DNA of 64,000 nucleotides. It comes from an uncultured virus (IMG/VR IMGVR_UViG_3300026518_000010) (lineage: Duplodnaviria > Heunggongvirae > Uroviricota > Caudoviricetes). Positions 1,335-41,297 of this stretch are shown here, one piece after another. Position 1 is the stretch's first letter; each line of letters starts with the position of its first letter. The stretch is from IMG/VR virus record IMGVR_UViG_3300026518_000010; one strand, written 5' to 3'. A program made the position numbers and the translations under genes. Under the pieces are notes generated by a model. It had not been told where the DNA came from. It made no database searches and worked only from the letters and a program-made list of their open reading frames with translations.

Positions 1335-1343
1335 GCATTTTAG
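1335..1343 (-). promoter_or_regulatory. CTAAAATGC phage promoter-like motif
   Basis: Recurrent motif about 25 nt upstream of start codon; about 13 related copies in window. Confidence 0.6.
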
Positions 1344-1377
1344 TTATTTATATGTAATAAATATTAGAAAAAAAAAT

Positions 1378-1407
1378 ATTAATAGTAAGGGCATCCTTAC
1401 TATTAAT
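1378..1407. terminator. Intrinsic terminator hairpin
   Basis: 13-bp inverted repeat ATTAATAGTAAGG-gcat-CCTTACTATTAAT followed by T-run on minus strand. Confidence 0.75.
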
Positions 1408-1410
1408 AAA

Positions 1411-2535: not shown

Positions 2536-2595
2536 TTTACATCCTTTCTATTTATTTTAAAGATGGAAAAAAAAATGGGAGCAAGCCCAAGGTTC

Positions 2596-6750: not shown

Positions 6751-6760
6751 GTAGGAAATC

Positions 6761-7072
6761 CTACTTATCTTTTGCTAATTTATCACTAAGATAAAATATA
6801 AACTTATCTAAACTTCTATTTAATTTTTTATAATAGTAGTATGCAGAATCATATACTGTATCAAAAATAGTATAAACTATTAAAACTAAAGCTACGAATA
6901 AATTTACTAATGGTATAAACATAGCAATTAACATAAATTTAATAGTAAACTTATCATCTTCACAAGCATACGACCTATACTGATCTTTACAATCTTTCAT
7001 CTCTACTAACTTATTTTTAATATAGTTAATTATAATAATCATAGAACCAAAATAAAGAATTAGAAAACTCAT
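6761..7072 (-). CDS. Small membrane protein
   Basis: Two hydrophobic segments; overlaps upstream stop (ATGA). Confidence 0.65.
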   Translation of the reverse strand: MSFLILYFGSMIIIINYIKNKLVEMKDCKDQYRSYACEDDKFTIKFMLIAMFIPLVNLFVALVLIVYTIFDTVYDSAYYYYKKLNRSLDKFIFYLSDKLAKDK

Positions 7073-19022: not shown

Positions 19023-20099
19023 TTATTTTTCCAAACTATCAAAAATAGATTTTGGTTCATAATCATTATCTGTAACACCAATCCACCCACTATATACTTC
19101 TGGTTGTTTATAAGCTATAGATTTCTTTTCAAAATTATTAGTCACATTTGATGTCTCATCATCTATTGCTGCATACTTATCTAAATGTTTATATGGATTT
19201 TTTCTATCTGGGAAAATAGGATCTAATCCAATCTCTTTTAATCTTTTATTAGCTAAGTAATATGTATAATCTTCAACTGTTTCATTAGACATACCTAAAA
19301 TATTATCTCCTATAGCGTGTCTACCAAAATTAAGTTCTTGTTCTACTGCTTTTTCAAATAACCCATAAACTATATCTTTATCAAAACTTTCAGGATTCTC
19401 TTCTCTAAATATTTTAATCATTTTAGCAAATGAAACACAATGATTTACTTCATCTCTTTTAATATAAGATATTTGTGTATTAGTAGCAGTCATAACTCCT
19501 CTATATGCTAAATTATGAAAGAACATAAATCCATTATAAAAATAAATACCTTCTAACATAAAATTAGCTATTAATAAAATAAAAAAAGATTTAGCATCAT
19601 CTTTATCTTTATATAATTCATAAAGTTCAGCTATGTACTTAACTCTTTCGTGTAAAACATCATCATCTCTCCATAAATACATAATCTCTCTTGCTTGCTC
19701 TATGTCTAACATTTCTGATAAGATATAACCATAAGATAAACTATGTATAGATTCATCAAACGTTTGTCTAACTAACCATAGCTTAGTTTCAGGGTCTGTA
19801 ACAAAACTTTCTATATTAGGTAGATTATTAGTTTGTACAGAATCTAAAAATACTAAATATGATAAAATAAGATTATAAGCTTGTATCTCATCATCTGTTA
19901 AAACATTAGTATATTGCATTTTATCATCGGACATATTAGATACCTCATCTGGTACCCAGTTATTACCCCATTGTGTATAAAATAGATTTTTAAAAAATCC
20001 ATATTTTAAATCTACTATATTAAATAGATTTGTAGTTTCTCCTCCAAATAGTTTTCTTTTACTATCATCTGCTGTTGGGTTAAATAATTTCTGTTTCAT
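19023..20099 (-). CDS. nrdB: Class I ribonucleotide reductase beta subunit
   Basis: NNWVPDEV, FLDSVQ, DESIHSLSY (radical Tyr), LEGIYFYNGF, RDEVNH di-metal ligands. Confidence 0.96.
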   Translation of the reverse strand: MKQKLFNPTADDSKRKLFGGETTNLFNIVDLKYGFFKNLFYTQWGNNWVPDEVSNMSDDKMQYTNVLTDDEIQAYNLILSYLVFLDSVQTNNLPNIESFVTDPETKLWLVRQTFDESIHSLSYGYILSEMLDIEQAREIMYLWRDDDVLHERVKYIAELYELYKDKDDAKSFFILLIANFMLEGIYFYNGFMFFHNLAYRGVMTATNTQISYIKRDEVNHCVSFAKMIKIFREENPESFDKDIVYGLFEKAVEQELNFGRHAIGDNILGMSNETVEDYTYYLANKRLKEIGLDPIFPDRKNPYKHLDKYAAIDDETSNVTNNFEKKSIAYKQPEVYSGWIGVTDNDYEPKSIFDSLEK

Positions 20100-20329
20100 T
20101 AGTTATCCTTTTCGAAAATTTTTATTTCAATTTTAGACATATCTCTTTTAGTTCTTTTTATAATGCTATTCATTTCACTTTCTAAAATACTTAATATTTC
20201 ATCAGTGGTTAATTCTTCATTTATGAAAAAATATACACTTCCTAAGTAACTATTATTATATTTAGTATTTTCATATATCTTTAATTCATAATCCCCAGAA
20301 TGGAGATTATTTTTATAAGTATTAGCCAT
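20099..20329 (-). CDS. Small hypothetical protein between nrdA and nrdB
   Basis: 76 aa, AAGGA RBS, stop overlaps nrdB start. Confidence 0.6.
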   Translation of the reverse strand: MANTYKNNLHSGDYELKIYENTKYNNSYLGSVYFFINEELTTDEILSILESEMNSIIKRTKRDMSKIEIKIFEKDN

Positions 20330-20338
20330 TAATTATCC

Positions 20339-22678
20339 TTAGTTAGCACAATCGCTACAACTACTTCCTCTATTATAATAAACTGCTTTTAACTCACCTT
20401 TATAAAAACCTTCCATTATAACCTGTACTAATTTACCAATATTAGCAGTATTTGTATTTAAGTTAACTTCCATACTTATACCAGTATCTATAAATGTTTG
20501 TAATGCTCTTGTAAATCTAACAATATCTTCTGGCATATATTGTATTCTAGTTTTATAATACCAATGTCTTTCTTTAAGAAACACAGGCATTAATGGAACT
20601 ACGATATTAGCAAGTTCTTGAGTACCGTCTCTTGTAAAAATAGGCAAATAACTAGGACTAACTCCCATAACAACTCCAGTAGAAGTATTCGGCGCTATTG
20701 CTAATAATAGAAAATTTCTTATACCGTGTTTTTTAATAGAGCACTGTACCTCTTTCCAGCTATAATTATTGCCTGTAATATCTTTACTAATATCATTAAG
20801 TCTACTTATATGTTCTCCGAATAGAGTTTTATAATTTTCTTTTCTAAACCAAGGATAAGGACTTAATTCTTTAGCTAACTCTATACTTGCTTTATAGGCA
20901 TAGTAAGATATTTTTTCAGTAATCTTCATACCGAATTTAATACCATCTGTTGTATTATAGTTTAATTTAAAATAAGCCATTACATCAGCTAACCCTAAAT
21001 AACCTAAACCTACATTTCTTAATCTTGCGGCTCCTAATTCTGCTTCTTTAATAGGGAATGTAGAATTATCTATAGATTTATCTAAAATTCTAACAGAAGT
21101 AGTTACAACATCTTTTATTCTATCTTCTATACTATCTAATGCTTTAAAAGGATCTGAAACAAATTCTTCTTTTAAAATAGGTTTTAACATTTCAACAAGA
21201 TTAATAGATGTTAAATTACAAGCGTGGTACATACCATTTGTTTCAATTGTCTTTCTACCATTTAAATCTACTTCTTCTTTCCATTTAGTAGGTGTCTTAA
21301 CAACACTGAAAGATTCTAAACATAAATTACCGCAAGAAGTTATTAATCTTCTATCGCCTTCTTCATATTTAAGATAATTAGATTTGTTTAAATTATCTTT
21401 ATCTACCATATAAATTTCACCAACTTCTACCCAATGCCAAAATACTTTCTTAATTAAAGCTCTAGCATTAACTCTTTTATAAGAAACGTTATTAGGCTCA
21501 TTTACTAACACACCATCTTCTATCATTTTTTCAATTTGTTTATAAGTAGCTTTTAATTCTTCACCAATTAATTCAGTTATATCTATCCCTGTTTTTTCTT
21601 TAAATATATACTGGTTTACTAAATACACATCTTCATTAGCAAAATACTTTTCAGCTAAGTAATTATCCATAATAACCTGTGGAAAAATATCAAAAGTCTT
21701 TTGTCTCATATCACCTTTTAATGTAGATTTAGCTTCCATAAAATCATAAATATCTAAATGCCACCAAGGTAACGCTATAGTTAAAGCTCCTTTTCTAGTT
21801 CCGCCTTGATTAACTGCAATAATAATATCATTAAGTATTTTAGTCCACTTAGTAATACTATTAGATCTTTTAATTTTATCCGAATATGTATTAGCAGGTC
21901 TAACTTTTGATAAATCCCATCCTACACCACCACCTGCTCTACTAATAGAAGATATATCAGCCCAAGATTTAATAAGTCCTGTTAATGTGTCTGGATTTGA
22001 ACCAATAAAACAACTACCTGTATTACCATTAGGTCTTCTTAGATTGCTTAGGAACGGCGTAGCTAAAGAAATAACCATATTTGATAATTTACTATAATAA
22101 TCAAAAAACTCTTCTCTAGTGCTAGCTAAGATAACCGCGTTAGCTAAATGAATCATAAATGGATATTCTATAGGACCATTTTGACTTTTAATAAGATACT
22201 TGTCTAACAATATTAATACTTGTGATACTTTTTTATTAAAATCTGGATTATTATAATTTATATCTTTCCAACTTCCATAATTAATATCTTTTTCAGTAAT
22301 ATTAAATTTATTTAATTTTTCTCTAATTTCTTTTTTATAATAACCATTATCTACTAAGTAATCTAATAAAATTCTCCATTCAGAAAATCTAATATTTACA
22401 TTTTTATAAACTGTTCCATAAATATCCCACATAGCAATTCTACCAGATACTAGATTCCAATCAGGTTCCTCTGCTGAAACTTTTGATTTAGATAAATTAA
22501 TCAATGCTGCTTGAATATCAGTAGTCTTAATACCATCTTTAAAATACATTTTAAGAGAAGCTTCAAATTCTATAGGATTAATATCAGTATTTTTACAAGC
22601 AAAATTTATTTGTTTTTTGATTTTACTTAAGTCAAACTTTTCTACTTTTCCGTTTCTTTTAACAATATTTATATTCAT
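20339..22678 (-). CDS. nrdA: Class Ia ribonucleotide reductase alpha subunit with ATP cone
   Basis: IVKRNG ATP cone, ATPFLSN, GSCF, GGGVG, NLCLE, ACNLTSINL, AIAPN, YY and terminal CSDC. Confidence 0.96.
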   Translation of the reverse strand: MNINIVKRNGKVEKFDLSKIKKQINFACKNTDINPIEFEASLKMYFKDGIKTTDIQAALINLSKSKVSAEEPDWNLVSGRIAMWDIYGTVYKNVNIRFSEWRILLDYLVDNGYYKKEIREKLNKFNITEKDINYGSWKDINYNNPDFNKKVSQVLILLDKYLIKSQNGPIEYPFMIHLANAVILASTREEFFDYYSKLSNMVISLATPFLSNLRRPNGNTGSCFIGSNPDTLTGLIKSWADISSISRAGGGVGWDLSKVRPANTYSDKIKRSNSITKWTKILNDIIIAVNQGGTRKGALTIALPWWHLDIYDFMEAKSTLKGDMRQKTFDIFPQVIMDNYLAEKYFANEDVYLVNQYIFKEKTGIDITELIGEELKATYKQIEKMIEDGVLVNEPNNVSYKRVNARALIKKVFWHWVEVGEIYMVDKDNLNKSNYLKYEEGDRRLITSCGNLCLESFSVVKTPTKWKEEVDLNGRKTIETNGMYHACNLTSINLVEMLKPILKEEFVSDPFKALDSIEDRIKDVVTTSVRILDKSIDNSTFPIKEAELGAARLRNVGLGYLGLADVMAYFKLNYNTTDGIKFGMKITEKISYYAYKASIELAKELSPYPWFRKENYKTLFGEHISRLNDISKDITGNNYSWKEVQCSIKKHGIRNFLLLAIAPNTSTGVVMGVSPSYLPIFTRDGTQELANIVVPLMPVFLKERHWYYKTRIQYMPEDIVRFTRALQTFIDTGISMEVNLNTNTANIGKLVQVIMEGFYKGELKAVYYNRGSSCSDCAN

Positions 22679-22747
22679 TTTTTCTCCTTTATGTTCTGTT
22701 CAATTTAACGCAATCGGGATAAAAAAAGTACGAGTAAAAACTCGTAC

Positions 22748-23845
22748 TTAAAATTTATATTTTAATCCAAAATACAGCACATTATTTATCTTTTTATTAC
22801 TTGTTTCGTAATAATTTAAAGTATTAGGTTTAATAACTTTATTATTAGTTAAATATTTATATCTAAATAACATAGTTAGTCTACTATTAATAAATATTTT
22901 CTCTGAGAATATAAAATTATATCCTATATCAGAATATCCATAACCAGTATATGGATCACCAAAAGAAAAATTAATATAATTGTCATAAATCCTTTTAACT
23001 ATAAATGTGGAAACTACTTCTTTATTAAAATAATATAGATTATTAAAATTACTAATTCCTAAACTAATAGATTTACCTAATTTATTTTTAATATATTCTT
23101 TATTACCATTATCTGGTTTAGATAATTCTAATATAGCGAAGTATATATTATTATTAGTATTAAAATTACCATATTTATATCCTAAAGTAAATAAATTTAA
23201 ATTACCATAAAATTTATTATTAATATAAAACTTAATTCTATAAATATCATTTTCTATTTTATTATCTTTATTGTTATATTTATTTATAATAAATATACCT
23301 TTACTACCTTTTAAAGAATACTCAGTATCTCCTTTAGACATAGGGTAATTTTTACTTAATTTAATATCTGTGTTTAAAAGCAAATCTTTTACACCATATC
23401 CTATTATATTTGTAAATTTATCGTGTTTATATGCTAAAAACATTCCAGTAATATTTATACTAGTAGTTCCGCCTATTCCATTACCTTTAGCAGAATATAG
23501 TTCTGTATTATCATTTATATCGCCATAGTTAAAAGGTAATATACCTAATGTAACAGAGAAAACATTATTTAATTTAAACTCAGCAGACAATTGTCTTATT
23601 GATAAAAACGTAGATGAATTATAAGGTTGGTTTAAATTTGTATTAGAATAATACTTACTATTTTTAACTAAAATAAAATCTCCCACATATAAATTATTAC
23701 TATCGTTTTTAATTAATACTGTTTCTAACTTACCTTGTTTATTAGTATAATGCTTATTATATGTTGCTGCTGCTGTTAAATAATTAGTTATATCCATAGC
23801 TCTACTCGAAATAATAACTAAAATTAAAATTATTAATGCTTTCAT
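22748..23845 (-). CDS. Predicted outer-membrane beta-barrel protein
   Basis: Signal peptide, alternating aromatic/hydrophobic strands, C-terminal beta-signal YFGLKYKF. Confidence 0.7.
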   Translation of the reverse strand: MKALIILILVIISSRAMDITNYLTAAATYNKHYTNKQGKLETVLIKNDSNNLYVGDFILVKNSKYYSNTNLNQPYNSSTFLSIRQLSAEFKLNNVFSVTLGILPFNYGDINDNTELYSAKGNGIGGTTSINITGMFLAYKHDKFTNIIGYGVKDLLLNTDIKLSKNYPMSKGDTEYSLKGSKGIFIINKYNNKDNKIENDIYRIKFYINNKFYGNLNLFTLGYKYGNFNTNNNIYFAILELSKPDNGNKEYIKNKLGKSISLGISNFNNLYYFNKEVVSTFIVKRIYDNYINFSFGDPYTGYGYSDIGYNFIFSEKIFINSRLTMLFRYKYLTNNKVIKPNTLNYYETSNKKINNVLYFGLKYKF

Positions 23846-24096
23846 TTCGTACTCCTTAATGTAGTTCCTATTGTAACATTAGGGATAATAAAACATTTAT
23901 TACATATATAGTAAGTGTCATTATTGTCAATATGTTTATTACTATACATATTTAATAAATTATAATTACATATCCTCTTCCATCCTATTATAGAATGTAT
24001 ATCTTTGTTTATATTATATTTACTTAATAATCTATTACATTTAATGTCGGCATTAGAATAAACTAAGAACAACATAGTCATAATTATTTTTTTCAT
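23842..24096 (-). CDS. Small secreted Cys-containing protein
   Basis: Signal peptide ending SNA; four Cys; ATGA-coupled to neighbours on both sides. Confidence 0.7.
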   Translation of the reverse strand: MKKIIMTMLFLVYSNADIKCNRLLSKYNINKDIHSIIGWKRICNYNLLNMYSNKHIDNNDTYYICNKCFIIPNVTIGTTLRSTK

Positions 24097-25436
24097 TTAG
24101 ACTCCTTCACACTGTTTACTAACAAGTCTATTATAAATACAGTACCTTTATTAGATGTAGTGTAAACATATATATCACCACCAGCATCTCTCAAGATTTC
24201 TCTAGTTATATAAAGACCAAATCCTCTATATGAATTTAATACCTCATCTTTCTTATTTTTATCTTTATTAAAAAATTTCATTATCTTAGTTTTAAAAGAC
24301 CCATAATTATTTACTTCATCAATAGCCTTCATATTCTCTTGAACTTCTTCTTTTGTACTATAACCTAATTGAAATATTTTATCATAATCGCCATCTTCTA
24401 CATTTTTAATACCGCTACCATTATCTGTTAATATTAATGATAATATTTTACTATTAGTATCGTATCTAGAATCGACTACTATAGTAGTAGCGCCTGCTTC
24501 TAATGAGTTTTTTATTTGGTTATTTAATATATTTAATAACGTTCCGTTATCTAACTTACTAGCTTTTACTGATTTTAATAATTCTTGATTTTTAATTTCA
24601 TAATCAAAAGTAAATGAAAAATGTGATAACTTAAGTGATTTTATAGTTGTTAATATTATATCGTATAAATCTTTACTATTAACATTATATTTGGTTTTCT
24701 TATTTGTAGACATTTGTTCTAAAACAGATTCTAGTCTTTCAATATTGCTATCTAATAATGGAAAATAATCTGTATATTCTTGTGTTAATAATCTAAATTT
24801 ACAAGTATAACAATTTGAATTTTTACTAATATTTGCCATTGATTTTACAGAAGGAGTTGTTTCTTTTAATTGCATTATAGATGTTTTAATAACTTCCACA
24901 GGAACTGTCATTTCGTGATACGCAGATTCTGCTGTTATATTTTGTAGCCTACCTTCTAACTTTGATTTATTAATAAACATTTCTAGATCTTTATTTTTCT
25001 CTTCTAAAAACTTACTTTTAAAATAATAGAAATGATAACCTAATAATATTAATAAAGCTATTACTATATCTTCTCTAATAGAAAATATATAAAAATTATC
25101 TAATTTAGGAACTATGTGTATATTTGTATCTTGTATAGTATATCTGTTATATATATACCTTTCTATTATAGATAAATTATTTATATTCATACTTGTTTCT
25201 TTTAGTACGTCATTTACAGGGCTATATAATATTTTATTTTTAGAAATATATTCACAATTTACGATATTGCATATTAGATTTAAATCAGGCCCATTAGTTT
25301 TAACAATAGACTCTACTCTATTATTATTATAAGTAAAAAAAGATTTAAAATTTATATATGTAACTACTACATTAACGATAATAATCAATAATAGTATATT
25401 AATCAATTCCTTTAAATAAGTACTTTTAAATTTCAT
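24093..25436 (-). CDS. Membrane-bound sensor histidine kinase
   Basis: Two TM helices around a periplasmic loop; H-box ESAYHEMTVPV, N-box NNQIKNSLEA, G1 DNGSGI, F-box IFQLGYSTK, G2 GFGLYI. Confidence 0.93.
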   Translation of the reverse strand: MKFKSTYLKELINILLLIIIVNVVVTYINFKSFFTYNNNRVESIVKTNGPDLNLICNIVNCEYISKNKILYSPVNDVLKETSMNINNLSIIERYIYNRYTIQDTNIHIVPKLDNFYIFSIREDIVIALLILLGYHFYYFKSKFLEEKNKDLEMFINKSKLEGRLQNITAESAYHEMTVPVEVIKTSIMQLKETTPSVKSMANISKNSNCYTCKFRLLTQEYTDYFPLLDSNIERLESVLEQMSTNKKTKYNVNSKDLYDIILTTIKSLKLSHFSFTFDYEIKNQELLKSVKASKLDNGTLLNILNNQIKNSLEAGATTIVVDSRYDTNSKILSLILTDNGSGIKNVEDGDYDKIFQLGYSTKEEVQENMKAIDEVNNYGSFKTKIMKFFNKDKNKKDEVLNSYRGFGLYITREILRDAGGDIYVYTTSNKGTVFIIDLLVNSVKESK

Positions 25437-25486
25437 TAAATCCTCCTTATAAGGTTAATAATTAATCAAAATAAATTAAAAAAAAA

Positions 25487-25513
25487 TACTAAACACGAGT
25501 TACGTGTTTAGTA
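25487..25513 (-). terminator. Intrinsic terminator between receiver gene and kinase operon
   Basis: TACTAAACACG/CGTGTTTAGTA hairpin plus T-run on minus strand. Confidence 0.75.
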
Positions 25514-25515
25514 AA

Positions 25516-26193
25516 TTACTTATTTTTTAAAGATTCTTTATAAGTACGGTACATGTCTAATATAAATTTCTTTCTATTTGATTTTTTACCAAAAAAATAA
25601 TCTTCTATTTTATAATTAGTAGCATTTTCAAATTTAGTTATAAATTTCTTAATTTCTGCATTATCTCTACTTAATCTATGAGCAGAACAAAACCTTACAT
25701 CACAATTCGGATACTTTTTAAATATATCAACTGCTACATCTACTCCGTCACATCTAACAATAGTCCCATCTTCTATCTTATACATTTTACCTAACGTTAT
25801 ATCCAAAATAGCTAATACTAATTCATCTTTGCTATTTTTAACATATTTCTTAGCTATAAATCCAGCATCATCTCCTACACATTTTACTATTTTAAAATCT
25901 TTTTTAATATCTATGCCTGTGGCTTTTTTAATGTCCTCAAAATCTCTTTCATATAGATAAAATGTTTCTGGTAAATCATCCATGATTAAAAAACTACAAG
26001 AAGAATCAATATTTCCATCTACATATGGATCTGGGAAATTATCTAAAGAAAATTCTGGTATACTTTTATCTATTTCATCCGGTAACACTATATTATTTAA
26101 TTTCTTTTTTTTATACTCTTTCTTTCCAGTATCTTTATCTCTAATCCTATTAAATAAATTTAAAAATCTTTTAAACATCTTATCCTCCAACAT
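25516..26193 (-). CDS. Stand-alone response-regulator receiver protein with N-terminal extension
   Basis: FLIMDD acidic pair, AILDITL phospho-acceptor Asp, DGVDV, FCSAH, FGK; no output domain. Confidence 0.8.
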   Translation of the reverse strand: MLEDKMFKRFLNLFNRIRDKDTGKKEYKKKKLNNIVLPDEIDKSIPEFSLDNFPDPYVDGNIDSSCSFLIMDDLPETFYLYERDFEDIKKATGIDIKKDFKIVKCVGDDAGFIAKKYVKNSKDELVLAILDITLGKMYKIEDGTIVRCDGVDVAVDIFKKYPNCDVRFCSAHRLSRDNAEIKKFITKFENATNYKIEDYFFGKKSNRKKFILDMYRTYKESLKNK

Positions 26194-26653
26194 TACTAAT
26201 TGTTTTTAATATCTTACCAGTTTCTTCTGGTAAAAAATGAACCATACCTACACCAATACCTATTAAAATAATTACAAAAGTAGGTATTAATACTATTGGA
26301 CTAGTAAGTGCATTAATTATTCTTTCTTTAATAGTCGATCCACCTTTTCGATCATCTATAATTTTTTTAACTAACCTATCCTGTTTTTCAATTATATCAC
26401 TAGTTAATTTAAGAACTTCATCGTAACTAGTAACTAACACTTCTTTAGTATGTTTAGCAGCTGTTACATTATTAGTATGTAGTATAATCAGTAATTCTTT
26501 TAGATCATTAGTTACTTCTTTCATTGCGTATATTTCTTTTATTAATTCTGTATTATCCATACTATCATTAGTTATATGTATACTAAGTAACTCTGACCTT
26601 AACTTATCTATTTTATCTCTTAATTCTATATTTTCTTCTACTATTTTTTCCAT
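26180..26653 (-). CDS. Coiled-coil protein with C-terminal TM helix
   Basis: Heptad-rich N-terminal part, hydrophobic helix near C-terminus. Confidence 0.7.
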   Translation of the reverse strand: MEKIVEENIELRDKIDKLRSELLSIHITNDSMDNTELIKEIYAMKEVTNDLKELLIILHTNNVTAAKHTKEVLVTSYDEVLKLTSDIIEKQDRLVKKIIDDRKGGSTIKERIINALTSPIVLIPTFVIILIGIGVGMVHFLPEETGKILKTISNVGG

Positions 26654-26668
26654 TTTAAACCCTTTATA

Positions 26669-27274
26669 TTAATTAGGTAAATTATTATTATCAGACTCAA
26701 CCACTACATTAAACGGTACATATATATTACTTAATTCTTTCTTAAATAATAGATTTAAATTTTTAATAAACCATATTTTTTTATCTGTTTTTATCAAACC
26801 TAACATAAATGCTAAATCATTAGGAGAAATTGATTCCGGTTTAACTTTCCATATTACCTCATTGTCAATACCACCTAGTTGTATTGCTTTAGTACAAGAC
26901 TCAGAACAAAACCATTCAAGTGGGTTATCAATTCCTAATGGGAATATCTGAGATAAAAATATTCCTTTGTAATCATATTTAGAACCTTCCAATATTTTAA
27001 AAAATCTTTGAATATGCTCTACAGATTTAACATTAATTTCTTTATAATCATAAATGTTAGAATTAAAAATGTGTCTTTTACATCTTACAGTATTTTTAGT
27101 ACCTAAAGCTGAGCACATTGTAGCTTTACCTGTTTCAGTATCAAATATAATTAATTCAACGTGTGAATATGGTCCATTAGTCCATACTCCTATAACCCTA
27201 GCTTGAAAAGTAGAGTTATCGTTATTCCAAGCTTTATAAAAAGCTAAATAAACTTTATAATTTTTATTATTCAT
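26669..27274 (-). CDS. Permuted papain-like NlpC/P60 (YiiX/YebB-like) enzyme
   Basis: GPYSHVEL His motif precedes KYD and WFCSE Cys motif; ISPNDL. Confidence 0.8.
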   Translation of the reverse strand: MNNKNYKVYLAFYKAWNNDNSTFQARVIGVWTNGPYSHVELIIFDTETGKATMCSALGTKNTVRCKRHIFNSNIYDYKEINVKSVEHIQRFFKILEGSKYDYKGIFLSQIFPLGIDNPLEWFCSESCTKAIQLGGIDNEVIWKVKPESISPNDLAFMLGLIKTDKKIWFIKNLNLLFKKELSNIYVPFNVVVESDNNNLPN

Positions 27275-27353
27275 AATAAATCCTTTTTTTAATCGATATA
27301 ATTAATCAACCTAAAATAAAAAATAATTGTACACTAAGGAAAGATCCTTAGTG

Positions 27354-28226
27354 TTATTTAACTAGCGCATTAAATACTTCATTTACTTTTTCTGGAGTAG
27401 GGTTTTTAGCCACTTTATTGGCTTCCAATAGAGCTTCGATAGCTTCTTTGGGAGATTTTAAGAATAACGCTTTTACGGCTACTCTATATTCATCAATCAT
27501 AGCAGCCATTGTACCAGTTTTTTTACTCCATTCGTCATTTTTACTAACAATCATTTTAGCATAATCTTCTATAGTAATACCTAATTTACTAGCACCTATA
27601 TTTAATATATTCCCTATTTTAGGATCTTTATTTTTTAAATATGCTTTAGCCAAGTTAGTTTTAATATCATATCTTTGTTCTAAAAATAACGATATTTGTT
27701 TTTTATTAATAATATTACCTACAGCTGCTTTTTGATATTCGTCTGCTAACTTAGTAGTAATAATATCGAAACTACTTTCGCCTAATCCTATCAATTCTTC
27801 AGCAGAAACATCTTCAACAGTAATATCTTTAAATTCTTCCTGTAGTTTATTATTAACATAAGTTTCCATACTAGGAATATCTTTATTATTTTTAATTAAT
27901 TCTTTACATTCATCTGTAAGCTCTCTATCTTCTAACGGTAATTCCATTTCAGTTATAGTTTTAATTGGCATATAACATTCTGGTTTAAATAATTTTTTAC
28001 CATTTTCAGTAAGAGTATATACAGCAAATTTTTCATTATAAAAACCTGCTGCATTCATATATTTATCCGCATATTCGTTTTCTATTTCTTTTTTTCTTAA
28101 TTTAACTTTTTTACAAAGTACTTCGTATTGTAAAGCAGTATAAAAAGCTTTTGGGTTATTATTTTCTAAAGCTTGTTTTAGCTTATTAACAACATTACAA
28201 GATTGTTTAAAAGTGTTAATATCCAT
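27354..28226 (-). CDS. Putative tail-fibre assembly/chaperone protein (paralog of 35383-36162)
   Basis: Follows fibre gene; shares FKPECY, RY.IK.NLA and W.....ID..R segments with paralog. Confidence 0.55.
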   Translation of the reverse strand: MDINTFKQSCNVVNKLKQALENNNPKAFYTALQYEVLCKKVKLRKKEIENEYADKYMNAAGFYNEKFAVYTLTENGKKLFKPECYMPIKTITEMELPLEDRELTDECKELIKNNKDIPSMETYVNNKLQEEFKDITVEDVSAEELIGLGESSFDIITTKLADEYQKAAVGNIINKKQISLFLEQRYDIKTNLAKAYLKNKDPKIGNILNIGASKLGITIEDYAKMIVSKNDEWSKKTGTMAAMIDEYRVAVKALFLKSPKEAIEALLEANKVAKNPTPEKVNEVFNALVK

Positions 28227-28299
28227 TGTATATCCTTTAAATAATGTATAGGTTTAACCTATCAAACAATTCAACTATTTTTAACAAGTAATAAATATA

Positions 28300-28328
28300 T
28301 TATAACAGAAGAAATTCTTCTGTTATAA
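28300..28328. terminator. Palindromic terminator
   Basis: 14-bp inverted repeat TTATAACAGAAGAA/TTCTTCTGTTATAA. Confidence 0.7.
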
Positions 28329-28331
28329 CGA

Positions 28332-31300
28332 TTATTTTAATTTAAATATATCACTAGTAAACGGTGGGTTTACATACATATCTTTATCAAAGATAATACC
28401 TCTTTGAACAGCTCTTGATTGTTTAATAATATCACCGAATTGAACTCCTCCATCAATATCTATATTTTCAGCAGGTAACACAGATATATTATTAGGAATA
28501 CTAATGTTGCTAATTTCTTTATCTAAGTTAAAATTAAACTCTGTTTTAGCTTTAGACATTAGTAACTCTATATCAGATTCTGTTAAATTAGTATTATCAA
28601 AGAACATAACTTCTTTAACTCTTATTGATGTATAGAATTCTTTACCATTACGACCATTAAATTGGTTATTACTAGCAACACCACCTATATACATATAATT
28701 ACCTCTTAAACCGACATAGTAATTACTTACAGGATTTCTTCTATAATCAACTCTTACTCCATTAACAAACATCTCAGTAACTATATAACCGTCTTCTAGT
28801 CTATAATTGAATACAATATGATACCATTTATTAGTTTTAGGCGTTTCAAAGTCAAATGGGTTTATAATTATATTTCTAATACTTCCTTTATTACCGTCAG
28901 AATTTCTATAATCTAAATAAAATCTATTCTGATAAATACCAAATCCAAACCCATTTGAACCACCACCATCATTAACTAAAACAGCACTATTTTCACCAGA
29001 TTCCATACTAATCCAACCAGCTACGGCTATATTTCTTTTTATAGGGCCTAAACCAAATGGACTATCTGTTAACTGTAAGAAATGTTTATTAGCTTTTTCG
29101 AATAGCATAACTTTACCCATTCTATAGTCGTCTATAATTTTACCTTTAAATTGTTTAATTCCAACATTACCTTCTGCTGTAATTTTACCATTTTTATCTA
29201 CATAAACTCTAGCAACTTCTTTTTGATTAAATGCTTTAAATTTATTTTCAATAACATTGATATTCATTTTTTCTGGAATCATATTTTCCATTCCAGTAAT
29301 AATATTATTTACTTTTGATACAGGTTTATTAATGTAGAAATTATCAACTTTAGTATCAAACTTTTTAAATTCATTACTTAATTCAGTAATTTCAGATTCT
29401 GTAAGTAGTCTATTATATACCCTAGCATTAAACATTTGAGCGTTAATAAGTGAATAAAAAGTAGACGTATAATCTATTCTACTCATAAAACTGAAAACAT
29501 TATTATGTTTATAGCTATTAATTAATCTACCAGCATTTCTATTTAACTTAAATGCTTTATCACCATTAATAAATACAGTATATTCACTTTTAATTAAATC
29601 ATTAGTAACTGTTATATTATAAAGTTTTTTAGATTCTAATTTTTTAATGTTTATCCAAGTCCAGTCAGCTCCTGCTGCTATTTGTAAAAATCCATTATTT
29701 ATCGCTAACTCAGAAATTTGATTACCTGCATTATATAAGGTTTCTTCATTACCTACTTTATTAATATCTGGAATATAAAGATTAAAACTAATAGTAAATT
29801 TAGAATTTAAGTTAACAGTTACTTCTTTAGGTAATGTCATATAGTCTTGACTAGTATTAGAAAAATTAAATCCAATTAATCCATTATCTAATTTAGAAAC
29901 AATAGGTTTATTAGTACAATATACTGGTTTACCTGTAATTCTATCAGTTAAATCTTCATTAATTAAACCATGAAATACTAAACCATCAGTAACTAAATCA
30001 GTTTTAACAGTAAAATCATCTTTACCACTTGTTAAAGGTTTTAAAGCTTTTGGCTTAACTTTATAAGCTAATTTAATAGATTCGTCTAATTGTAAATTTT
30101 CTACTTCCGTTTCAAATGTAGTTTCAACATTTTCGTTAAGTAAATATTTAATCTCTGCCTCATTCAGACTTCTAGTAAATAATTTAAATTGTTTTAAACT
30201 ACCATTAAAAGACGCCCATTTATGATTACCATTATTACTGTATCCACCACCTATTCCTATATAGTTATTCCAAGTTTGTTTTAATGTTTTAGGAGTTTTA
30301 AATGTTTTATCATATACTTTTTCTCCATTAAGATTATGTATGATCATTCTTAAAGCATTAGGGGCATATTCAAAATAACCAAAATACCATTCTTTTTCTT
30401 TTAGTCCAGTCCAACCAGAATAATTAAATTCTCCAAAATCATCTCTACCTGCGTGTATGTAAAGACCATAAGCATTACTATATCTAATCCACCAATCGAA
30501 TCCATTACTTGCTTTAGGTACTCCATCAAAATCATTACCAAATAACACAATGTTAGATGATAATTCATCTATTTTAAACCAACTTGTAATTGAAAATGTA
30601 ACTGGTATCTTATTAGGAGTTTGTGCGAGTATAATATCGTTTCTAGTTTTAAATGTTAAACAATTTCCTTTTACAGAATCATTATCTATAATGTTAGAAA
30701 ATACACTGTCAGCATCTATAAGTACATTTGAATTTCCTATATTTAATAAATTACCAGTTAAAGGCATGTTTATTAAACATTTACCATCTTTAAATGGATC
30801 AGCTTCTAAATTACCTAATTTAACAATACTAGGTTTTTTAATCTCTACTTCTTGTCCATTAATAAATACTTTACCTTGTCCAATAGGACTAGTAGAAATT
30901 AACTTATTATCTTTAAAATCAACAATATCAATAGGAGCTATTTCAGTATTCACTATATCATTATCCATAGAAGTATTTAAAATCATTTCAGCTTCAAAAG
31001 GTTTAGCTATAAATAAAGGTTTACTCGGTAAGTTTAAACTTGAAATATTAGCTTTAAATAAATTAAAATACTTAGCATTGTATAATGCATCTATTTCTTC
31101 TTCACTTAACTGTCTATCAAATATAGCCACATCTTTCATAAGACCTTTAAAAATTGTACTAGGATGATCGCCAAAAATACCTATTCTATTTATACCAGAT
31201 AAATATTGGCCTTTATGTTTTCCTCCTCCTACTAACTTGTTATCTACATACAATTTACTTTCTTTTGTTGTAGTATTATGCACCCAAACAACATGTCTCC

Positions 31301-32012
31301 ATTTTTTATCTTTACTAGTAAATGGTACTTTCACATCCACATCGTCTCCCCAGAATCCTAATCTCATAATTCCAGGTCCACTAGAAGATAAAACAAAATG
31401 TAAATTTTCATCAGTAGCATCTTTATTGTTACATCCTACAATAGTGGCATGTCCACCTTTAGGCCAGTCATTACCATTTAAATTTATCCAAGCTGAAATA
31501 GTAAAATCTCTTTTAGACATATCCATACCATTAGTAAGTTTAATAAATGTATTACCATCAAAATTACCTACTCTACCTTTAACAACTCCGCCAGTATAAG
31601 CTGCTGATCTACTTTTAATACTAACATTACCTTTACTATCTACTGATTTATAAAACCAATTACATCCGAGATTATTAGTTAAACTTCTATCAGTATTATT
31701 AAACGTAATAGCTAATCTACTTTTATATATAAAATCTACACTTACTTTCTCAACATCTAAATTAGTTCTTTTCTTTTTAATTTTTTTATCTTTATCCATA
31801 TAAATAATATCTACTTCTTCTCCATTAGGAAAATTATAAGATAAATTTACTAATTTGTTATCAGATTTATAATTAGACACATTAGCTAAATTAATAATTC
31901 CTACATTAATTTTACTATTTTTAAATTCTAAAAAATCTTTTTCTCCTGGTTGTTGAATTACCGGAGTTTCTAAATAAACAGCATTTTTCATATTACTTGT
32001 AATTGTACCCAT
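28332..32012 (-). CDS. Tail fibre / receptor-binding protein with multiple LamG (concanavalin-A-like) domains
   Basis: Repeated FTISAWI...WRHVV...LYVD...FDRQLSEEEI-type units; start moved to MGTITS. Confidence 0.8.
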   Translation of the reverse strand: MGTITSNMKNAVYLETPVIQQPGEKDFLEFKNSKINVGIINLANVSNYKSDNKLVNLSYNFPNGEEVDIIYMDKDKKIKKKRTNLDVEKVSVDFIYKSRLAITFNNTDRSLTNNLGCNWFYKSVDSKGNVSIKSRSAAYTGGVVKGRVGNFDGNTFIKLTNGMDMSKRDFTISAWINLNGNDWPKGGHATIVGCNNKDATDENLHFVLSSSGPGIMRLGFWGDDVDVKVPFTSKDKKWRHVVWVHNTTTKESKLYVDNKLVGGGKHKGQYLSGINRIGIFGDHPSTIFKGLMKDVAIFDRQLSEEEIDALYNAKYFNLFKANISSLNLPSKPLFIAKPFEAEMILNTSMDNDIVNTEIAPIDIVDFKDNKLISTSPIGQGKVFINGQEVEIKKPSIVKLGNLEADPFKDGKCLINMPLTGNLLNIGNSNVLIDADSVFSNIIDNDSVKGNCLTFKTRNDIILAQTPNKIPVTFSITSWFKIDELSSNIVLFGNDFDGVPKASNGFDWWIRYSNAYGLYIHAGRDDFGEFNYSGWTGLKEKEWYFGYFEYAPNALRMIIHNLNGEKVYDKTFKTPKTLKQTWNNYIGIGGGYSNNGNHKWASFNGSLKQFKLFTRSLNEAEIKYLLNENVETTFETEVENLQLDESIKLAYKVKPKALKPLTSGKDDFTVKTDLVTDGLVFHGLINEDLTDRITGKPVYCTNKPIVSKLDNGLIGFNFSNTSQDYMTLPKEVTVNLNSKFTISFNLYIPDINKVGNEETLYNAGNQISELAINNGFLQIAAGADWTWINIKKLESKKLYNITVTNDLIKSEYTVFINGDKAFKLNRNAGRLINSYKHNNVFSFMSRIDYTSTFYSLINAQMFNARVYNRLLTESEITELSNEFKKFDTKVDNFYINKPVSKVNNIITGMENMIPEKMNINVIENKFKAFNQKEVARVYVDKNGKITAEGNVGIKQFKGKIIDDYRMGKVMLFEKANKHFLQLTDSPFGLGPIKRNIAVAGWISMESGENSAVLVNDGGGSNGFGFGIYQNRFYLDYRNSDGNKGSIRNIIINPFDFETPKTNKWYHIVFNYRLEDGYIVTEMFVNGVRVDYRRNPVSNYYVGLRGNYMYIGGVASNNQFNGRNGKEFYTSIRVKEVMFFDNTNLTESDIELLMSKAKTEFNFNLDKEISNISIPNNISVLPAENIDIDGGVQFGDIIKQSRAVQRGIIFDKDMYVNPPFTSDIFKLK

Positions 32013-32025
32013 TGTATATCCTTTA

Positions 32026-32622
32026 TTATTTATTAAATCCAATTAATGTTTCACTATATCTTTGAAAATCATCATTCACAAATTTAAAATCAAATTCTTC
32101 AGAAATATTATTTTCAGGCTGAATAGTAAAATCAAATTTAGATTCCATTTTACCTGGTTGTTTTAATTTTAAAGAAACTGTTACAGGTCCTTTAATTATT
32201 TTCTTTGGAACAATAGCTATACCGTCTTTTAATTTTTCAATATCGATATTAGGATTACTACTAACATAATCTAAATCAAAATTTTCTAAATTTTTAAACG
32301 GTATAAATGTTCTATTAAGATTTTCTAATTTTACAGATTTAGTTTTAAAATCTATATTCGCACCACTTATTTTATTAACATCAATAATAGGTTCTGGTGT
32401 TTTAATATAATCAATAACATCTCCTATTCCATTAGTATAATCCATAATAAGATTAATTTTACTACCATCTATTTTTAATAATTTTTTTACTTTACCACTA
32501 TCTACAAAAATTTTTCTATTAGGGTTATGTAATTTTTGTTTTATTTCTTCTAACTTTCCTGGATCGTTTTCAATATCTTCTGTTACCGTATAAGGCACAT
32601 TTAATATATCAGATAAAAACAT
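32026..32622 (-). CDS. Tail-fibre-associated hypothetical protein
   Basis: 198 aa in fibre cluster. Confidence 0.6.
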   Translation of the reverse strand: MFLSDILNVPYTVTEDIENDPGKLEEIKQKLHNPNRKIFVDSGKVKKLLKIDGSKINLIMDYTNGIGDVIDYIKTPEPIIDVNKISGANIDFKTKSVKLENLNRTFIPFKNLENFDLDYVSSNPNIDIEKLKDGIAIVPKKIIKGPVTVSLKLKQPGKMESKFDFTIQPENNISEEFDFKFVNDDFQRYSETLIGFNK

Positions 32623-37502: not shown

Positions 37503-40500
37503 TTAAATATCATTATGTAGTAATCCTGTTATTGGCGCATACATAACTTTTGTTCCTATTAAGCATAATTTGCTATTACCATCAACTCTTCTAATAACAG
37601 CACTATTATTATAAAAAGCAATAGGACTACTAGTATATCCAACAAAATTAATTAATAATGCTGCTCCAAAATAATCACCTAAATGGAACATAGCTTTAAT
37701 TTTATTAGTATTTTGGTTAAGACCAGATGTAGAACTAAGTAAATTAGCACCATATCTTAATCTAGTACCAGTAAAATTATAAACTTTTTCATCTGCAATA
37801 ACTATATTTGTATTTATATTACCACCAGTAGCCATACTATGCGGAGTTTTAATGTAGAACATAAATACCCAATAATCATCTATTTTAGCATCATAATCAT
37901 TGCTAAGTACAGGATTGATGTATATATAACCTTTATTATTATCTATATAATGTCCTACTTTGTTACCATTTTTTAAACTATCATAATCTACAACTCCTGG
38001 TATTTTTTTCCATTCTTTAGTTAAACTGTTATATGCTAATGCTTCAACTGTAATATTTGAATCATTCGTGATGCTAGTAGGGAATAATCCTTTTAATACA
38101 AACCCTTGTCCAAATCTATTATGTTTTAAATAAGGCAATTGCGTATCTTGTAGCGTATTTAAAACTGGTATACCATCGACACCAACTTTTTTCCATACTT
38201 CAGGATAACCACCTTTGTCTATATCAGAATAATTGCATAATTCTTTCCATTTATTTGTGTCTGTATAATTTTCTTTATCAGGATTAATATTAACAACACC
38301 TCTATATGTTAATGATCTATATACTTTATTTTTATCTACTGCTATACATGTCCCTTCAAATACATAGATATTCTCATCTTTACCTTTTGTAGCATCAGCC
38401 TCAATTCTTTCTCTAATAGATCTAGGATCACCATAAATAAATGGTATAACATCATAATTAAATGTTTTAGTGTCTCTATTTACAACACCACTAATTTCTA
38501 CCACTTTCTCACTATTATCAATATGTACACTTCTACCCATTTCATTTATATAACTAGCTCCATATGTGTACCAAGTACCTTTATAAGAACCATGGATATG
38601 ATATCTTTGAGAATCTGGTGAACTTAATTGTGTAAATGCGTTTACTTTATTGTTCCCTTTATTTTTTATTAATACTGTACCTATACTATATGTTCTACTA
38701 AATGCTGAGTCTCTTATAGAATTAAAATCTTCAGTAATTGCGTTATTATTATAACTACCAATAATTGATGTATAAGTTAATTTTTTACTTATAATAGTTG
38801 AAGCCACTCTATCGTTTGTCTTACCAGCTTTTTTAACTTCTAATACTTTTCTAAAATAAGGCATATATCCACCACCAATAGACTCACCATTAGTTAATTT
38901 ATTAACAATATTTCTTATAGTTGTAGTTGTTATATCACCAGAAATAGGTCTTAAATCCCTAATAGACATAACTCCTAATGCATCGTAATATACTCCATAT
39001 TTAGAATGTGCTACTTTTGTTCTTTTTTGACCAGATCTACTAACAGTATCTTTATTACTAACAGCTACAATATTACCATTTCCATCAAAACCAGCAATTA
39101 AATCTGTATTAAAACAATCTTCTATAGAAGAAATATAATTTTCATCTACTTCGTACCATTTTTTAATTTCACCAGAATAATATATCGCTGCTGTTCCTTC
39201 TGGGTTAAACACAGGGTGATAAACTCCTTTATTCATTTGTACAAACTCTGCTAAAGGAATTCCTACTCCTGAACCTGTAGCTCCTAAATAAGGTCTCATT
39301 AATAACACAATAGCTTCATCACCAACTTCAATATCAATATCTTTATTAAGAATAAGCTCATTTCCATTATAGTTTATATTTCTAATATTTACAATAGTAA
39401 CAGACCCGTCTTGTTTCTTAATAAGAATAGAATATACTTGATTCTGAATTTGTGTTAAATTTACTTCTTCACCATTAGGAGTCTCTAAAGTAACATAAAA
39501 AACTGAAGAAGTTCTTACATTTTTAACAATACCTGTAATTAATCCTTTAGGAGTAAAACTTGCTAAATCGCCATTATTTCCTAATTGACTAGTAGCTAAA
39601 TAAGCACTAACTGGCATACTAATAATTCTAACTCTTTGAATAAATTGTTGTAATTTTCCATTATGATATCTTAAATTATTAAATTTAAAACTAATAACAT
39701 TATCTAATTGTTCTTCTGTAAGATTAGATACTTTCCAACCTTCAGGAATATAATTTATTACTTCACCATAACCAACAAATGACTCCCATCCTTCGAAATC
39801 AACTTTACTAATACCACTAGGTCTATTTAATATAGCGTCAGCATTATGTAAATAATCAACTACACCGAATGGGAAAATAAATCCTGTTTTATCTACATCA
39901 TGCCAAAAACCTTCTGTATACATAAATTTATGATTACTTAATCCATCTGTAGCTGCTAATTTATGAACATGGTTAACAATATCTATACCTTTAGGTATAT
40001 CAGCTTTTACCCTAGCAATAACTTTATCTACTAATTTAATTGTTACATTCTCGATAACAATTTCACCATTTTTATCATAAACACCACCAATTAATAATCT
40101 ATTTGGAGCTGCTTTTTCTGGTTTAGAAATGATTCTAACATAATATTCATCTGTGCTTTCGTCATAATTAATTACATATTGACCAGATTGAATTTGTCTA
40201 TTAGTACTAATATTTCTATCTTTATCTTCAAAAACTATAGGCGTAATATTATAGTCTTCTTCACTTCTTAGCCAAACTTGTTGTATTCTATTAGATGCTT
40301 TAATTCTAATTTCATACTCAGCACCAGGTATTAATTTAATATTAGTTTTTGTTTCAAGTATAGGAATTAGATTACTTCCTTTAATTTTTACTGCTTTTTT
40401 ATCTGATAAATAACTTAATGTACCATGACCATTTCTAGCGTACCATCCGTCACTATCTTTATCGAAACTACCATTAATTACCCATTCTCTACTTGTATCG

Positions 40501-41297
40501 TCGATTAATACTAAATTATCTTTCTTTAATTCTTTGTCAGTATCTTTAGTATTTTTAATAACAATTAAATCTGGACCTGTCCCTGTTAAATATTTATATT
40601 TCATTGTACTAGGTCTAACAGCTAATTGGCCAGCGTAACTTAATAATTCATAGTTATCACCATTATGTTCAGTAGTTAAATATCCTATCACTTCTTCATC
40701 ACTAGCCATACCAGGTCTTCTAGCAATAATAGCTTTTTTTTGTAAAGAGCTAACTAAAAATCCACCATCTTCACGTTGTAAATAAATAGTATCTACAACC
40801 CCAACAGGATATCTTACATTATTACCAATTTTTTGGATTAAATCACTATTATTTAAAGCTTTAACTCTTTTACTTAAATTTTCAGCTTGTTTATTAACAT
40901 CATTAATTTCTTTATCAATTTTCTTATTAGTATTACTAATTGAAGTTTCAAGAGTATTAAAATTACTATCTACTTTTTTATTTAAACTGTTAATTTTACC
41001 TTGTAAATCATTTACGTGGTCATCAATTGTTTTATTAATAGCTGCTTTAATAGCATCTACTTCTACACTTTTATAATAATTTTTAAGTTCTTTAGATAAC
41101 TCGTCTGGAGTTATTGCTGTATCTTGTAATTGTTTAATAGCTGAACCTAAATTTGGTAATTTAATATTTTTAACACTACCATCTTCATCCATATAAATCC
41201 ACTCTACTTGTTTAGCATTTTTACTATCTAAAAAATCACCAAGTACTTGTGATATATTAATAATATTATTACTAATCGCTTCCCAGTTTAAAGCCAT
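37503..41297 (-). CDS. Large tail fibre protein
   Basis: 1264 aa; anchor N-terminus shared with 33228-34091, coiled coil, CBM-like INGSFDKDSDGW domain, NKGVYHPVFNPEGT motif. Confidence 0.72.
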   Translation of the reverse strand: MALNWEAISNNIINISQVLGDFLDSKNAKQVEWIYMDEDGSVKNIKLPNLGSAIKQLQDTAITPDELSKELKNYYKSVEVDAIKAAINKTIDDHVNDLQGKINSLNKKVDSNFNTLETSISNTNKKIDKEINDVNKQAENLSKRVKALNNSDLIQKIGNNVRYPVGVVDTIYLQREDGGFLVSSLQKKAIIARRPGMASDEEVIGYLTTEHNGDNYELLSYAGQLAVRPSTMKYKYLTGTGPDLIVIKNTKDTDKELKKDNLVLIDDTSREWVINGSFDKDSDGWYARNGHGTLSYLSDKKAVKIKGSNLIPILETKTNIKLIPGAEYEIRIKASNRIQQVWLRSEEDYNITPIVFEDKDRNISTNRQIQSGQYVINYDESTDEYYVRIISKPEKAAPNRLLIGGVYDKNGEIVIENVTIKLVDKVIARVKADIPKGIDIVNHVHKLAATDGLSNHKFMYTEGFWHDVDKTGFIFPFGVVDYLHNADAILNRPSGISKVDFEGWESFVGYGEVINYIPEGWKVSNLTEEQLDNVISFKFNNLRYHNGKLQQFIQRVRIISMPVSAYLATSQLGNNGDLASFTPKGLITGIVKNVRTSSVFYVTLETPNGEEVNLTQIQNQVYSILIKKQDGSVTIVNIRNINYNGNELILNKDIDIEVGDEAIVLLMRPYLGATGSGVGIPLAEFVQMNKGVYHPVFNPEGTAAIYYSGEIKKWYEVDENYISSIEDCFNTDLIAGFDGNGNIVAVSNKDTVSRSGQKRTKVAHSKYGVYYDALGVMSIRDLRPISGDITTTTIRNIVNKLTNGESIGGGYMPYFRKVLEVKKAGKTNDRVASTIISKKLTYTSIIGSYNNNAITEDFNSIRDSAFSRTYSIGTVLIKNKGNNKVNAFTQLSSPDSQRYHIHGSYKGTWYTYGASYINEMGRSVHIDNSEKVVEISGVVNRDTKTFNYDVIPFIYGDPRSIRERIEADATKGKDENIYVFEGTCIAVDKNKVYRSLTYRGVVNINPDKENYTDTNKWKELCNYSDIDKGGYPEVWKKVGVDGIPVLNTLQDTQLPYLKHNRFGQGFVLKGLFPTSITNDSNITVEALAYNSLTKEWKKIPGVVDYDSLKNGNKVGHYIDNNKGYIYINPVLSNDYDAKIDDYWVFMFYIKTPHSMATGGNINTNIVIADEKVYNFTGTRLRYGANLLSSTSGLNQNTNKIKAMFHLGDYFGAALLINFVGYTSSPIAFYNNSAVIRRVDGNSKLCLIGTKVMYAPITGLLHNDI

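Follow-up and report, generated by a model that had tools for sequence, protein, structure and literature searches.

A block of genes in a 64,000-nucleotide stretch of DNA from an uncultured virus (IMG/VR record IMGVR_UViG_3300026518_000010; the whole stretch is referred to here as the window) can be read, with moderate confidence, as a two-component signaling module that belongs to the phage itself. The family of this module has so far been found only in uncultured large phages, and it consists of three core genes and two accessory genes. The core genes are predicted to encode a 157-residue tail-anchored coiled-coil protein, a receiver that lacks an output domain, and a class-I (HisKA-type) membrane histidine kinase. 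The accessory genes encode an exported cysteine-containing protein and a porin-like barrel, and are translationally coupled to the kinase gene in the window and in a subset of the relatives. Every gene of the block is encoded on the minus strand. Coordinates are given as positions of the window; related IMG/VR loci carry the prefix L, and the records to which they belong carry the prefix G.

The kinase, the receiver, and the tail-anchored protein

The kinase gene (24093..25436, minus strand) encodes a 447-residue protein composed of a first transmembrane helix, an outer loop, a second transmembrane helix, a dimerization and histidine phosphotransfer (DHp) domain, and a catalytic domain. The two hydrophobic helices are located at approximately residues 5-35 and 114-134 and flank the outer loop, which is about 80 residues long and contains C56 and C61. 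The protein matches Pfam HATPase_c (PF02518) with an expectation value (E) of 5.8e-10 and a score of 40 bits (cut-off 26.4), and the same match is present in 9/9 aligned kinase relatives. Solved kinases are matched by the window kinase in a sequence search. The sensor-kinase models of NCBIfam gave many weak matches, all far below their cut-offs. Eight metagenomic homologues were identified, at 35-62% identity.

Within the close kinase set, the invariant motifs are H174 in ESAYHEM, the N box, DNGxG, the F box, and GFGL. A wider alignment of nine sequences, which takes in five IMG/VR homologues and reaches down to 22% identity, has E170, H174, E175, N310, D338, N339, G340, G342, F355, G405, and G407 as invariant residues. 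The original prediction, an earlier annotation of this DNA, described an intact membrane histidine kinase, and this description holds: H174 and the residues of the N, G1, F, and G2 boxes are invariant in 9/9 relatives. A profile of the kinase family matches HK853 (2c2a) at E 3.9e-11, with H174 aligned to the H-box histidine of HK853. From these matches, the protein is predicted to be an intact-looking class-I (HisKA-type) sensor histidine kinase.

Two inserts are present in the cytoplasmic part of the kinase. The first, of about 20 residues, is located in the DHp hairpin (residues ~195-230) and carries a CxxC motif (C209, C212). This motif is kept in 9/9 close relatives and in 6/9 sequences of the wider alignment, and the cysteine pair of the outer loop (C56/C61) is clear in 7/9 sequences of the latter. 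For the cysteine-bearing DHp insert, a role as a metal or redox site in the cytoplasm is possible. The second insert, 30-40 residues in length, is in the ATP lid (residues ~365-403). Both inserts are absent from the shorter kinases of L007 and L012. An extra cysteine was observed in the DHp insert of the L008 and L010 kinases.

The receiver gene (25516..26193, minus strand) encodes a 225-residue stand-alone receiver in which the receiver domain occupies residues ~56-225. The catalytic residues that had been claimed for it (D72, D73, D131, S170, and K203) are all present. A HMMER search returned 160 cluster representatives at E ≤ 1e-3, of which 107 were at E ≤ 1e-10; most are 190-310 residues in length. 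An alignment of 90 sequences was built from the window protein and 89 of the 150 hits listed, excluding those of unusual length, those matched in more than one stretch, and the majority of the weakest. D73 and D131 are invariant in this alignment, and conservation is 90% or higher at D72, T133, D149, G150, D152, H172, K187, and K203. Position 170 is serine or threonine in 13/13 rows of close relatives. The Pfam receiver model PF00072 is matched by 20 of the 90 family members at E ≤ 0.01 (best E 6.1e-6), and a profile of the family matches five CheY chains in the PDB, with E values of 5.3e-5 to 3.4e-4.

The AlphaFold model of the receiver has a predicted local distance difference test (pLDDT) score of 90 and a predicted template modeling (pTM) score of 0.82, and its elements follow the (beta-alpha)5 order, starting at residue 57. 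Its best solved Foldseek matches are receiver domains (DesR, HupR, PmrA, Spo0F, CheY, and others), with a probability of 1.00 to many receiver domains and a template modeling score of up to 0.74 on the target. The LDITLG sequence at residues 129-134 corresponds to MDITMP of CheY. An insert of approximately 12 residues follows this phospho-aspartate motif and forms a hairpin in the model. The model contains no output domain and no DNA-binding domain. The N-terminal helix (residues 3-20) is cationic and amphipathic, with a hydrophobic moment of 0.62 and a net charge of +3. As modeled, the protein appears to be an intact-looking, stand-alone, CheY-like receiver domain.

The gene directly upstream of the receiver (26180..26653, minus strand) overlaps the receiver gene by 14 nucleotides and encodes the 157-residue tail-anchored protein. 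It has a long helical N-terminal part and a single C-terminal membrane helix (hydrophobic stretch 111-144). A protein of the same build is encoded directly upstream of the receiver in 5/5 related loci as well as in the window (6/6 contexts), and was missed by the original prediction. Its sequence likeness is weak, and blastp matches just the counterparts in L008 and L010. The identity of an i-spanin was considered for this protein and ruled out because the membrane helix is C-terminal.

Among known systems, the best solved match of the kinase profile is the HK853-RR468 pair of Thermotoga maritima (2c2a, 3dge), in which the H box aligns and the partner receiver also has no output domain. In contrast to this pair, the phage kinase carries an insert in the DHp loop and a long one in the ATP lid and does not match Pfam HisKA, and the phage receiver has an N-terminal extension of about 55 residues and a hairpin insert after the phospho-aspartate. 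The single-domain receivers CheY, Spo0F, DivK, and CpdR share with the phage receiver the fold, the catalytic residues, and the lack of a DNA-binding domain. They differ in that the phage receiver gene is always preceded by a gene for a phage-only tail-anchored protein, its putative target.

Related loci and probable phage ownership

By its gene content, the window is identified as part of a nucleus-forming, chimallin-type, phiKZ-like jumbo phage. It contains genes for a nuclear-shell protein, split RNA-polymerase beta subunits, a phiKZ-type major head protein, a DNA polymerase, and a DnaB-like helicase. No tRNA genes were found in the window.

A degenerate DNA pattern for AILDITLG was used to find related loci and returned 13 in IMG/VR, five of which (L007, L008, L010, L011, and L012) encode a receiver of the family. 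A kinase of the same family adjoins the receiver in 5/5 of these loci, and all five kinases match HATPase_c. The two genes abut or overlap in L008, L010, L011, and L012 when the first ATG is read as the start. In L007, a gene for a 203-residue membrane protein with hydrophobic stretches at both ends (6297-6905 of that locus, plus strand) lies between receiver and kinase; the L007 phage is a non-chimallin phage of ~125 kilobases (kb) with the short form of the kinase. Canonical PF00072 receivers were not found in any of the five records. A homologue of the small exported protein and a homologue of the porin follow directly after the kinase in L010 and L011 (2/5), and no porin homologue was found anywhere in the other three records.

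The related records are 75-205 kb in length. Record G003, which contains L010, is 205 kb long with terminal repeats, and carries both a chimallin gene and a phiKZ-type capsid gene. A phiKZ-type capsid gene is also present in G002. Neither gene was found in G001 (124 kb, 94% complete) or G005, which places the kinase-receiver pair in more than one phage type.

Bacterial genome contigs yielded no kinase relatives in a limited scan with two short peptide patterns of the kinase, which can miss relatives; the IMG/VR relatives themselves surfaced only through the receiver motif. Scans with patterns from the kinase alignment returned nothing in viral or metagenome contigs, and single-protein scans of viral contigs also returned nothing. 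The receiver pattern returned at least 120 loci in genome contigs, and none of those listed encodes the family, as compared with 5 of 13 in viral contigs. Among GenBank phages, there was no blastn match to positions 22000-27000 and no tblastn match to the kinase, the window receiver, the L007 receiver, or the L010 receiver. In sum, phage contigs conserve the pair, and two scans of bacterial genomes, both limited, did not detect it. Judged by these comparisons, it appears to be a real, phage-specific, and conserved module. The receiver or kinase proteins found in BFVD are from uncultured phages, an Alteromonas phage, phaeoviruses, and giant viruses.

It is known that phages listen in on the signals of their hosts and that single host-like kinase genes occur in phages. 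Clostridium phage phiCDHM1 carries agr genes including agrC (PMC3901668), and soil phages carry phoR and phoB (PMC10987575). These resemble the window kinase in being histidine kinase genes carried by phages. Unlike the window kinase, which is phage-specific, has a receiver of its own, and occurs in at least two phage types, they are host-like, with host partners presumed. No description of a phage kinase-receiver-porin module such as this one was found in the literature searched. A full kinase-receiver pair that is specific to phages and conserved among unrelated lineages of large phages, here joined to exported and outer-membrane proteins, would differ from the known phage kinases. If the reading is true, some viruses run their own sensory circuit within the infected cell, and this virus may read the state of the cell envelope. 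The pair would offer a compact, orthogonal two-component system, and would provide an entry to the question of how nucleus-forming phages with walled-off DNA take decisions during infection.

Proposed pathway and competing explanations

The pathway described here, from its input through each biochemical step to its output, is one that we infer. The kinase would autophosphorylate on H174 upon a cue read by its outer loop. In phages that have them, the exported protein and the porin would modulate the kinase, much as the Rcs relay is fed by RcsF together with its partners in the outer membrane. The kinase would then pass the phosphate to D131 of the receiver, a histidine-to-aspartate transfer suggested by the adjacency of the two genes in 5/5 loci. 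The receiver would act through protein contact at the membrane, with the 157-residue protein as its most likely target. Chimallin phages enclose their DNA in a protein shell. This enclosure, together with the lack of a DNA-binding domain, points to an output by protein contact, and a transcriptional output of the receiver is unlikely. The cationic amphipathic helix at the N-terminus of the receiver fits action at the membrane.

The two accessory genes follow the kinase. The gene for the 84-residue exported protein (23842..24096, minus strand) begins in an ATGA overlap at the kinase stop, and the gene for the 365-residue porin-like protein (22748..23845, minus strand) begins in an ATGA overlap with the 84-residue gene. 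Both junctions were read directly and are as claimed in the original prediction. The same is true of the small secreted protein with four cysteines, which has a hydrophobic N-terminus and cysteines at positions 20, 43, 65, and 68. It has no family match in Pfam or PHROG and no usable match in the ESM Atlas. An o-spanin or a lipoprotein was rejected for the 84-residue protein, as no lipobox was seen by eye.

The 365-residue protein ends in YFGLKYKF. Its N-terminal hydrophobic stretch (residues 1-23, with the cleavage site placed by eye) and its terminal phenylalanine, which is invariant in 10/10 rows, agree with the signal peptide and beta-signal that had been assigned to it. Three close and several distant homologues were identified, and no porin or other family match was found in Pfam, PHROG, or NCBIfam. 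The model is all-beta with a pTM of 0.69. It matches solved porins over nearly its whole length (256-280 residues aligned), with Z scores of 19.4 for OprP, 19.1 for OmpM1, 18.7 for chitoporin, 18.5 for Omp32, and 18.2 for PorB, and a Foldseek E value of 8.9e-9 for OmpM1. The protein therefore models as an outer-membrane porin-like barrel of approximately 16 strands, the strand number being taken from the matched porins. The modeled barrel fold (Z 18-19.4) and the terminal aromatic residue are shared with these 16-strand porins; unlike them, the protein is phage-encoded, has no Pfam porin match, and is only 8-13% identical to them. The metagenomic homologues of the kinase and the porin have equal longest-contig values (17458 and 7757), a hint of shared contigs.

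In the Rcs envelope-stress relay, the RcsF lipoprotein and outer-membrane proteins signal to inner-membrane kinases. By analogy with this precedent, a small exported cysteine protein, an outer-membrane barrel, and an inner-membrane kinase may work together here, where they are encoded together. Unlike the Rcs relay, the 84-residue protein shows no lipobox by eye, and neither an IgaA-like protein nor a phosphotransfer intermediate was seen. Complex prediction for the 84-residue protein (residues 17-84) with the porin (residues 17-365) and with the kinase loop (residues 36-122) gave a score of 0.00 in both runs; the fold of the partner is uncertain, and these scores speak neither for nor against binding.

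Terminator-like hairpins divide the block. On the minus strand, a hairpin of 11 pairs followed by a T-run (25487..25513) lies between the receiver and kinase genes, a second hairpin with a T-run (22726..22749) closes the unit of kinase, 84-residue, and porin genes, and a third with a T-run (27331-27354) lies upstream of the gene for a 201-residue protein. Six terminator-like sites are present in 22000-28500, compared with 0.6 in shuffled sequence. From these hairpins, the block reads as two units, one composed of the 201-residue, 157-residue, and receiver genes and the other of the kinase, 84-residue, and porin genes. The hairpin between receiver and kinase is a correction to the original prediction.

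Several findings weigh against the reading as a phage-owned module. In the window, a hairpin and a 79-nucleotide spacer separate the receiver from the kinase, so the two may be expressed differently. None of the kinase family members (0/9) matches a Pfam HisKA model at E ≤ 0.5; the DHp domain is therefore divergent and recognizable only through profile alignment to solved kinases. The window receiver has no Pfam match at E ≤ 1, no match in the PHROG and NCBIfam scans, and, taken alone, no significant sequence match in the PDB. Among the four cysteines of the 84-residue protein, only C20 is conserved in a three-row alignment, and the relatives of this protein are few, being the genes at the same place in L010 (29% identity) and L011 (40%). 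Confidence in the porin model, which draws on 10 sequences, is only moderate (pLDDT 65). The porin and the small protein are missing from 3/5 related records, one of which is 94% complete, and are thus accessory and not needed by the core. The single pathway of porin, small protein, kinase, and receiver that had been proposed originally was not borne out.

It is possible, if somewhat doubtful, that the porin and the 84-residue protein serve a separate function and are only transcribed together with the kinase, with no pathway across the envelope. They might replace or mask host porins against superinfection, or alter the permeability of the outer membrane. Temperate phages carry porin genes, such as Lc of PA-2. 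The presence of the two genes in just 2/5 records favors such a role, as does the persistence of the cysteine pair of the kinase loop where they are absent, for example in L008. Against it stand the tight ATGA coupling to the kinase and the order of kinase, small protein, and porin, which is kept in two relatives at 21-29% identity.

A more specific version of the phage-owned module, which we regard as improbable, is an envelope surveillance relay that times lysis, as a phosphorelay counterpart of lysis inhibition in T4. Events at the outer membrane, for instance superinfection or damage to the envelope, would be signaled to the kinase by the porin and the exported cysteine protein. Once phosphorylated, the receiver would act at the inner membrane on the tail-anchored 157-residue protein, and this step would hold back or release the neighboring cell-wall hydrolases. 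With its DNA sealed in a protein nucleus, the phage would be unable to use a DNA-binding regulator. The only hint of lysis timing comes from the neighboring peptidase genes, and the sensing of superinfection or redox by the module is conjecture. No match to holin families was found in the Pfam and PHROG scans.

The peptidase-like gene in the window (26669..27274, minus strand) is the first gene of the upstream unit and encodes the 201-residue protein, a permuted papain-like (Peptidase_C92/YaeF-like) protein. It matches phrog_1128 at E 2.2e-28 and the NCBIfam YaeF family at E 0.005, far below the cut-off. Homologues are encoded ahead of the module in L011 (E 2.6e-19) and L008 (E 3e-4), and the L008 copy matches PF05708 at E 1.6e-5. 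Both the window and L011 have a C92-like gene ahead of the module, and cell-wall peptidase genes are located just upstream of the module in L007 (Peptidase_M15_4) and in L008 (Peptidase_C92 and Peptidase_M15_3).

Hijacking of host signaling is also an unlikely explanation. In that case, there would be no closed phage circuit, and the phage kinase, the receiver, or both would act on host two-component proteins. The kinase could phosphorylate or dephosphorylate a host regulator, or the receiver could drain phosphate from a host kinase, and envelope or metabolic responses would be rewired. The lack of an output domain in the receiver and the separate terminator-bounded units of kinase and receiver in the window are in keeping with this. 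The single phage-borne kinases that have been published are likewise presumed to act with host partners (PMC10987575, PMC3901668). The adjacency of kinase and receiver in 5/5 related loci, abutting or overlapping in four, argues for a phage circuit instead. Both families have also diverged strongly from their cellular counterparts, and the limited scans of bacterial genomes did not recover them; this argues against their recent acquisition to suit a partner in the host.

It is very unlikely that the receiver-like protein is an enzyme similar to the cREC domains of jumbo phages, which have been proposed to process cyclic nucleotides. The window protein is a divergent receiver that Pfam misses, and divergent receivers in jumbo phages have been described (Iyer et al. 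2021, PMC7824862). According to that paper, cREC is never linked to histidine kinases and sits with NAD+/ADP-ribose enzymes. Receivers of the window family share the divergent fold, but they always have a kinase neighbor and keep the full set of phospho-acceptor residues.

The assembly of the block was compared with independent sequencing runs. Part or all of 22300-27400 is contained in six runs from three studies; four of the runs are labeled hydrothermal vent metagenome, and one run, X1, may be where this DNA came from. In run X2, which belongs to another study, a single contig of 7045 nucleotides spans 21800-27900 and differs from the window at 11 letters and by 1 gap, and two contigs cover the region in run X3. 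An assembly chimera, or host DNA inserted in the phage contig, has practically no standing: the block, at 0.22-0.23, falls at the bottom of the GC range of the window, but the X2 contig spans both block junctions, the same synteny, including the adjacent ribonucleotide reductase gene, is found in L011, and the module occurs within a 205-kb record with terminal repeats. The block GC compares with 0.22-0.32 across the window, and the phage-like composition noted earlier is confirmed. A diderm, AT-rich host would agree with the low GC content and with the porin gene. Run X4, from the third study, holds 37% of the words of 22300-27400 in short contigs that are 90-99% alike, which suggests related strains. 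An extra A behind position 25477 is present in the X1, X2, and X3 contigs; it is a homopolymer-length difference in the noncoding spacer between receiver and kinase.

Sequence motifs and flanking genes

Two units of the block share a sequence box. The first copy of TTGATTAATTAT (25458..25469, minus strand) is located 21 nucleotides before the kinase ATG, and the second (27298..27309, minus strand) is 23 nucleotides before the ATG of the 201-residue gene, just past the hairpin at 27331-27354. In both units, the box is positioned between the hairpin and the ribosome-binding site, and the intergenic spacers ahead of the two genes can be aligned with each other. The exact 12-mer has 2 copies in the window versus 0.24 expected, a count that 2 of 100 shuffles attain. 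When 1 mismatch is allowed, it is not enriched, with 4 in the window versus 6.4 expected. The presence of TTGATTAATTAT before both units is a modest hint of common control.

A scan for sigma-70 promoters showed no enrichment, with 47 found versus 56.8 expected. A different motif, CTAAAATGCAA, is present 11 times in the window at ≤1 mismatch versus 3.7 expected, and none of 100 shuffles reaches 11. All copies are on the minus strand. Exact copies are at 1333, 13455, and 46578, and copies with 1 mismatch are at 48723, 55077, 57897, and other positions. Several are located approximately 20-35 nucleotides before the ribosome-binding sites of RNA-polymerase-subunit genes and other genes. This motif is probably a phage promoter. 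The kinase and 201-residue units are without CTAAAATGCAA and carry TTGATTAATTAT instead.

In order of transcription, the block and its flanks are composed of genes for a 1236-residue protein, a 290-residue protein, the 201-residue protein, the 157-residue protein, the receiver, the kinase, the 84-residue protein, the 365-residue protein, nrdA, a 76-residue open reading frame (ORF), and nrdB. The original prediction placed the block between tail-fiber genes and nrdA. On the downstream side, nrdA (20339-22678) and nrdB were both confirmed with Pfam. On the upstream side, the tail-fiber assignment of the 1236-residue protein (28332-32042, minus strand) is plausible only; the protein contains four concanavalin-like Laminin_G_3 stretches (Pfam). 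A 1264-residue protein (37503-41297, minus strand) had no match in the family scans. Both of these large proteins may be fiber or receptor-binding proteins.

In L011, the gene adjoining the module (2-2860, plus strand) encodes a ribonucleotide reductase large subunit with a LAGLIDADG intein; the nrdA of the window is without an intein. The 76-residue ORF between nrdA and nrdB (20099-20329, minus strand) has no family match, and its stop overlaps the nrdB start by 1 base.

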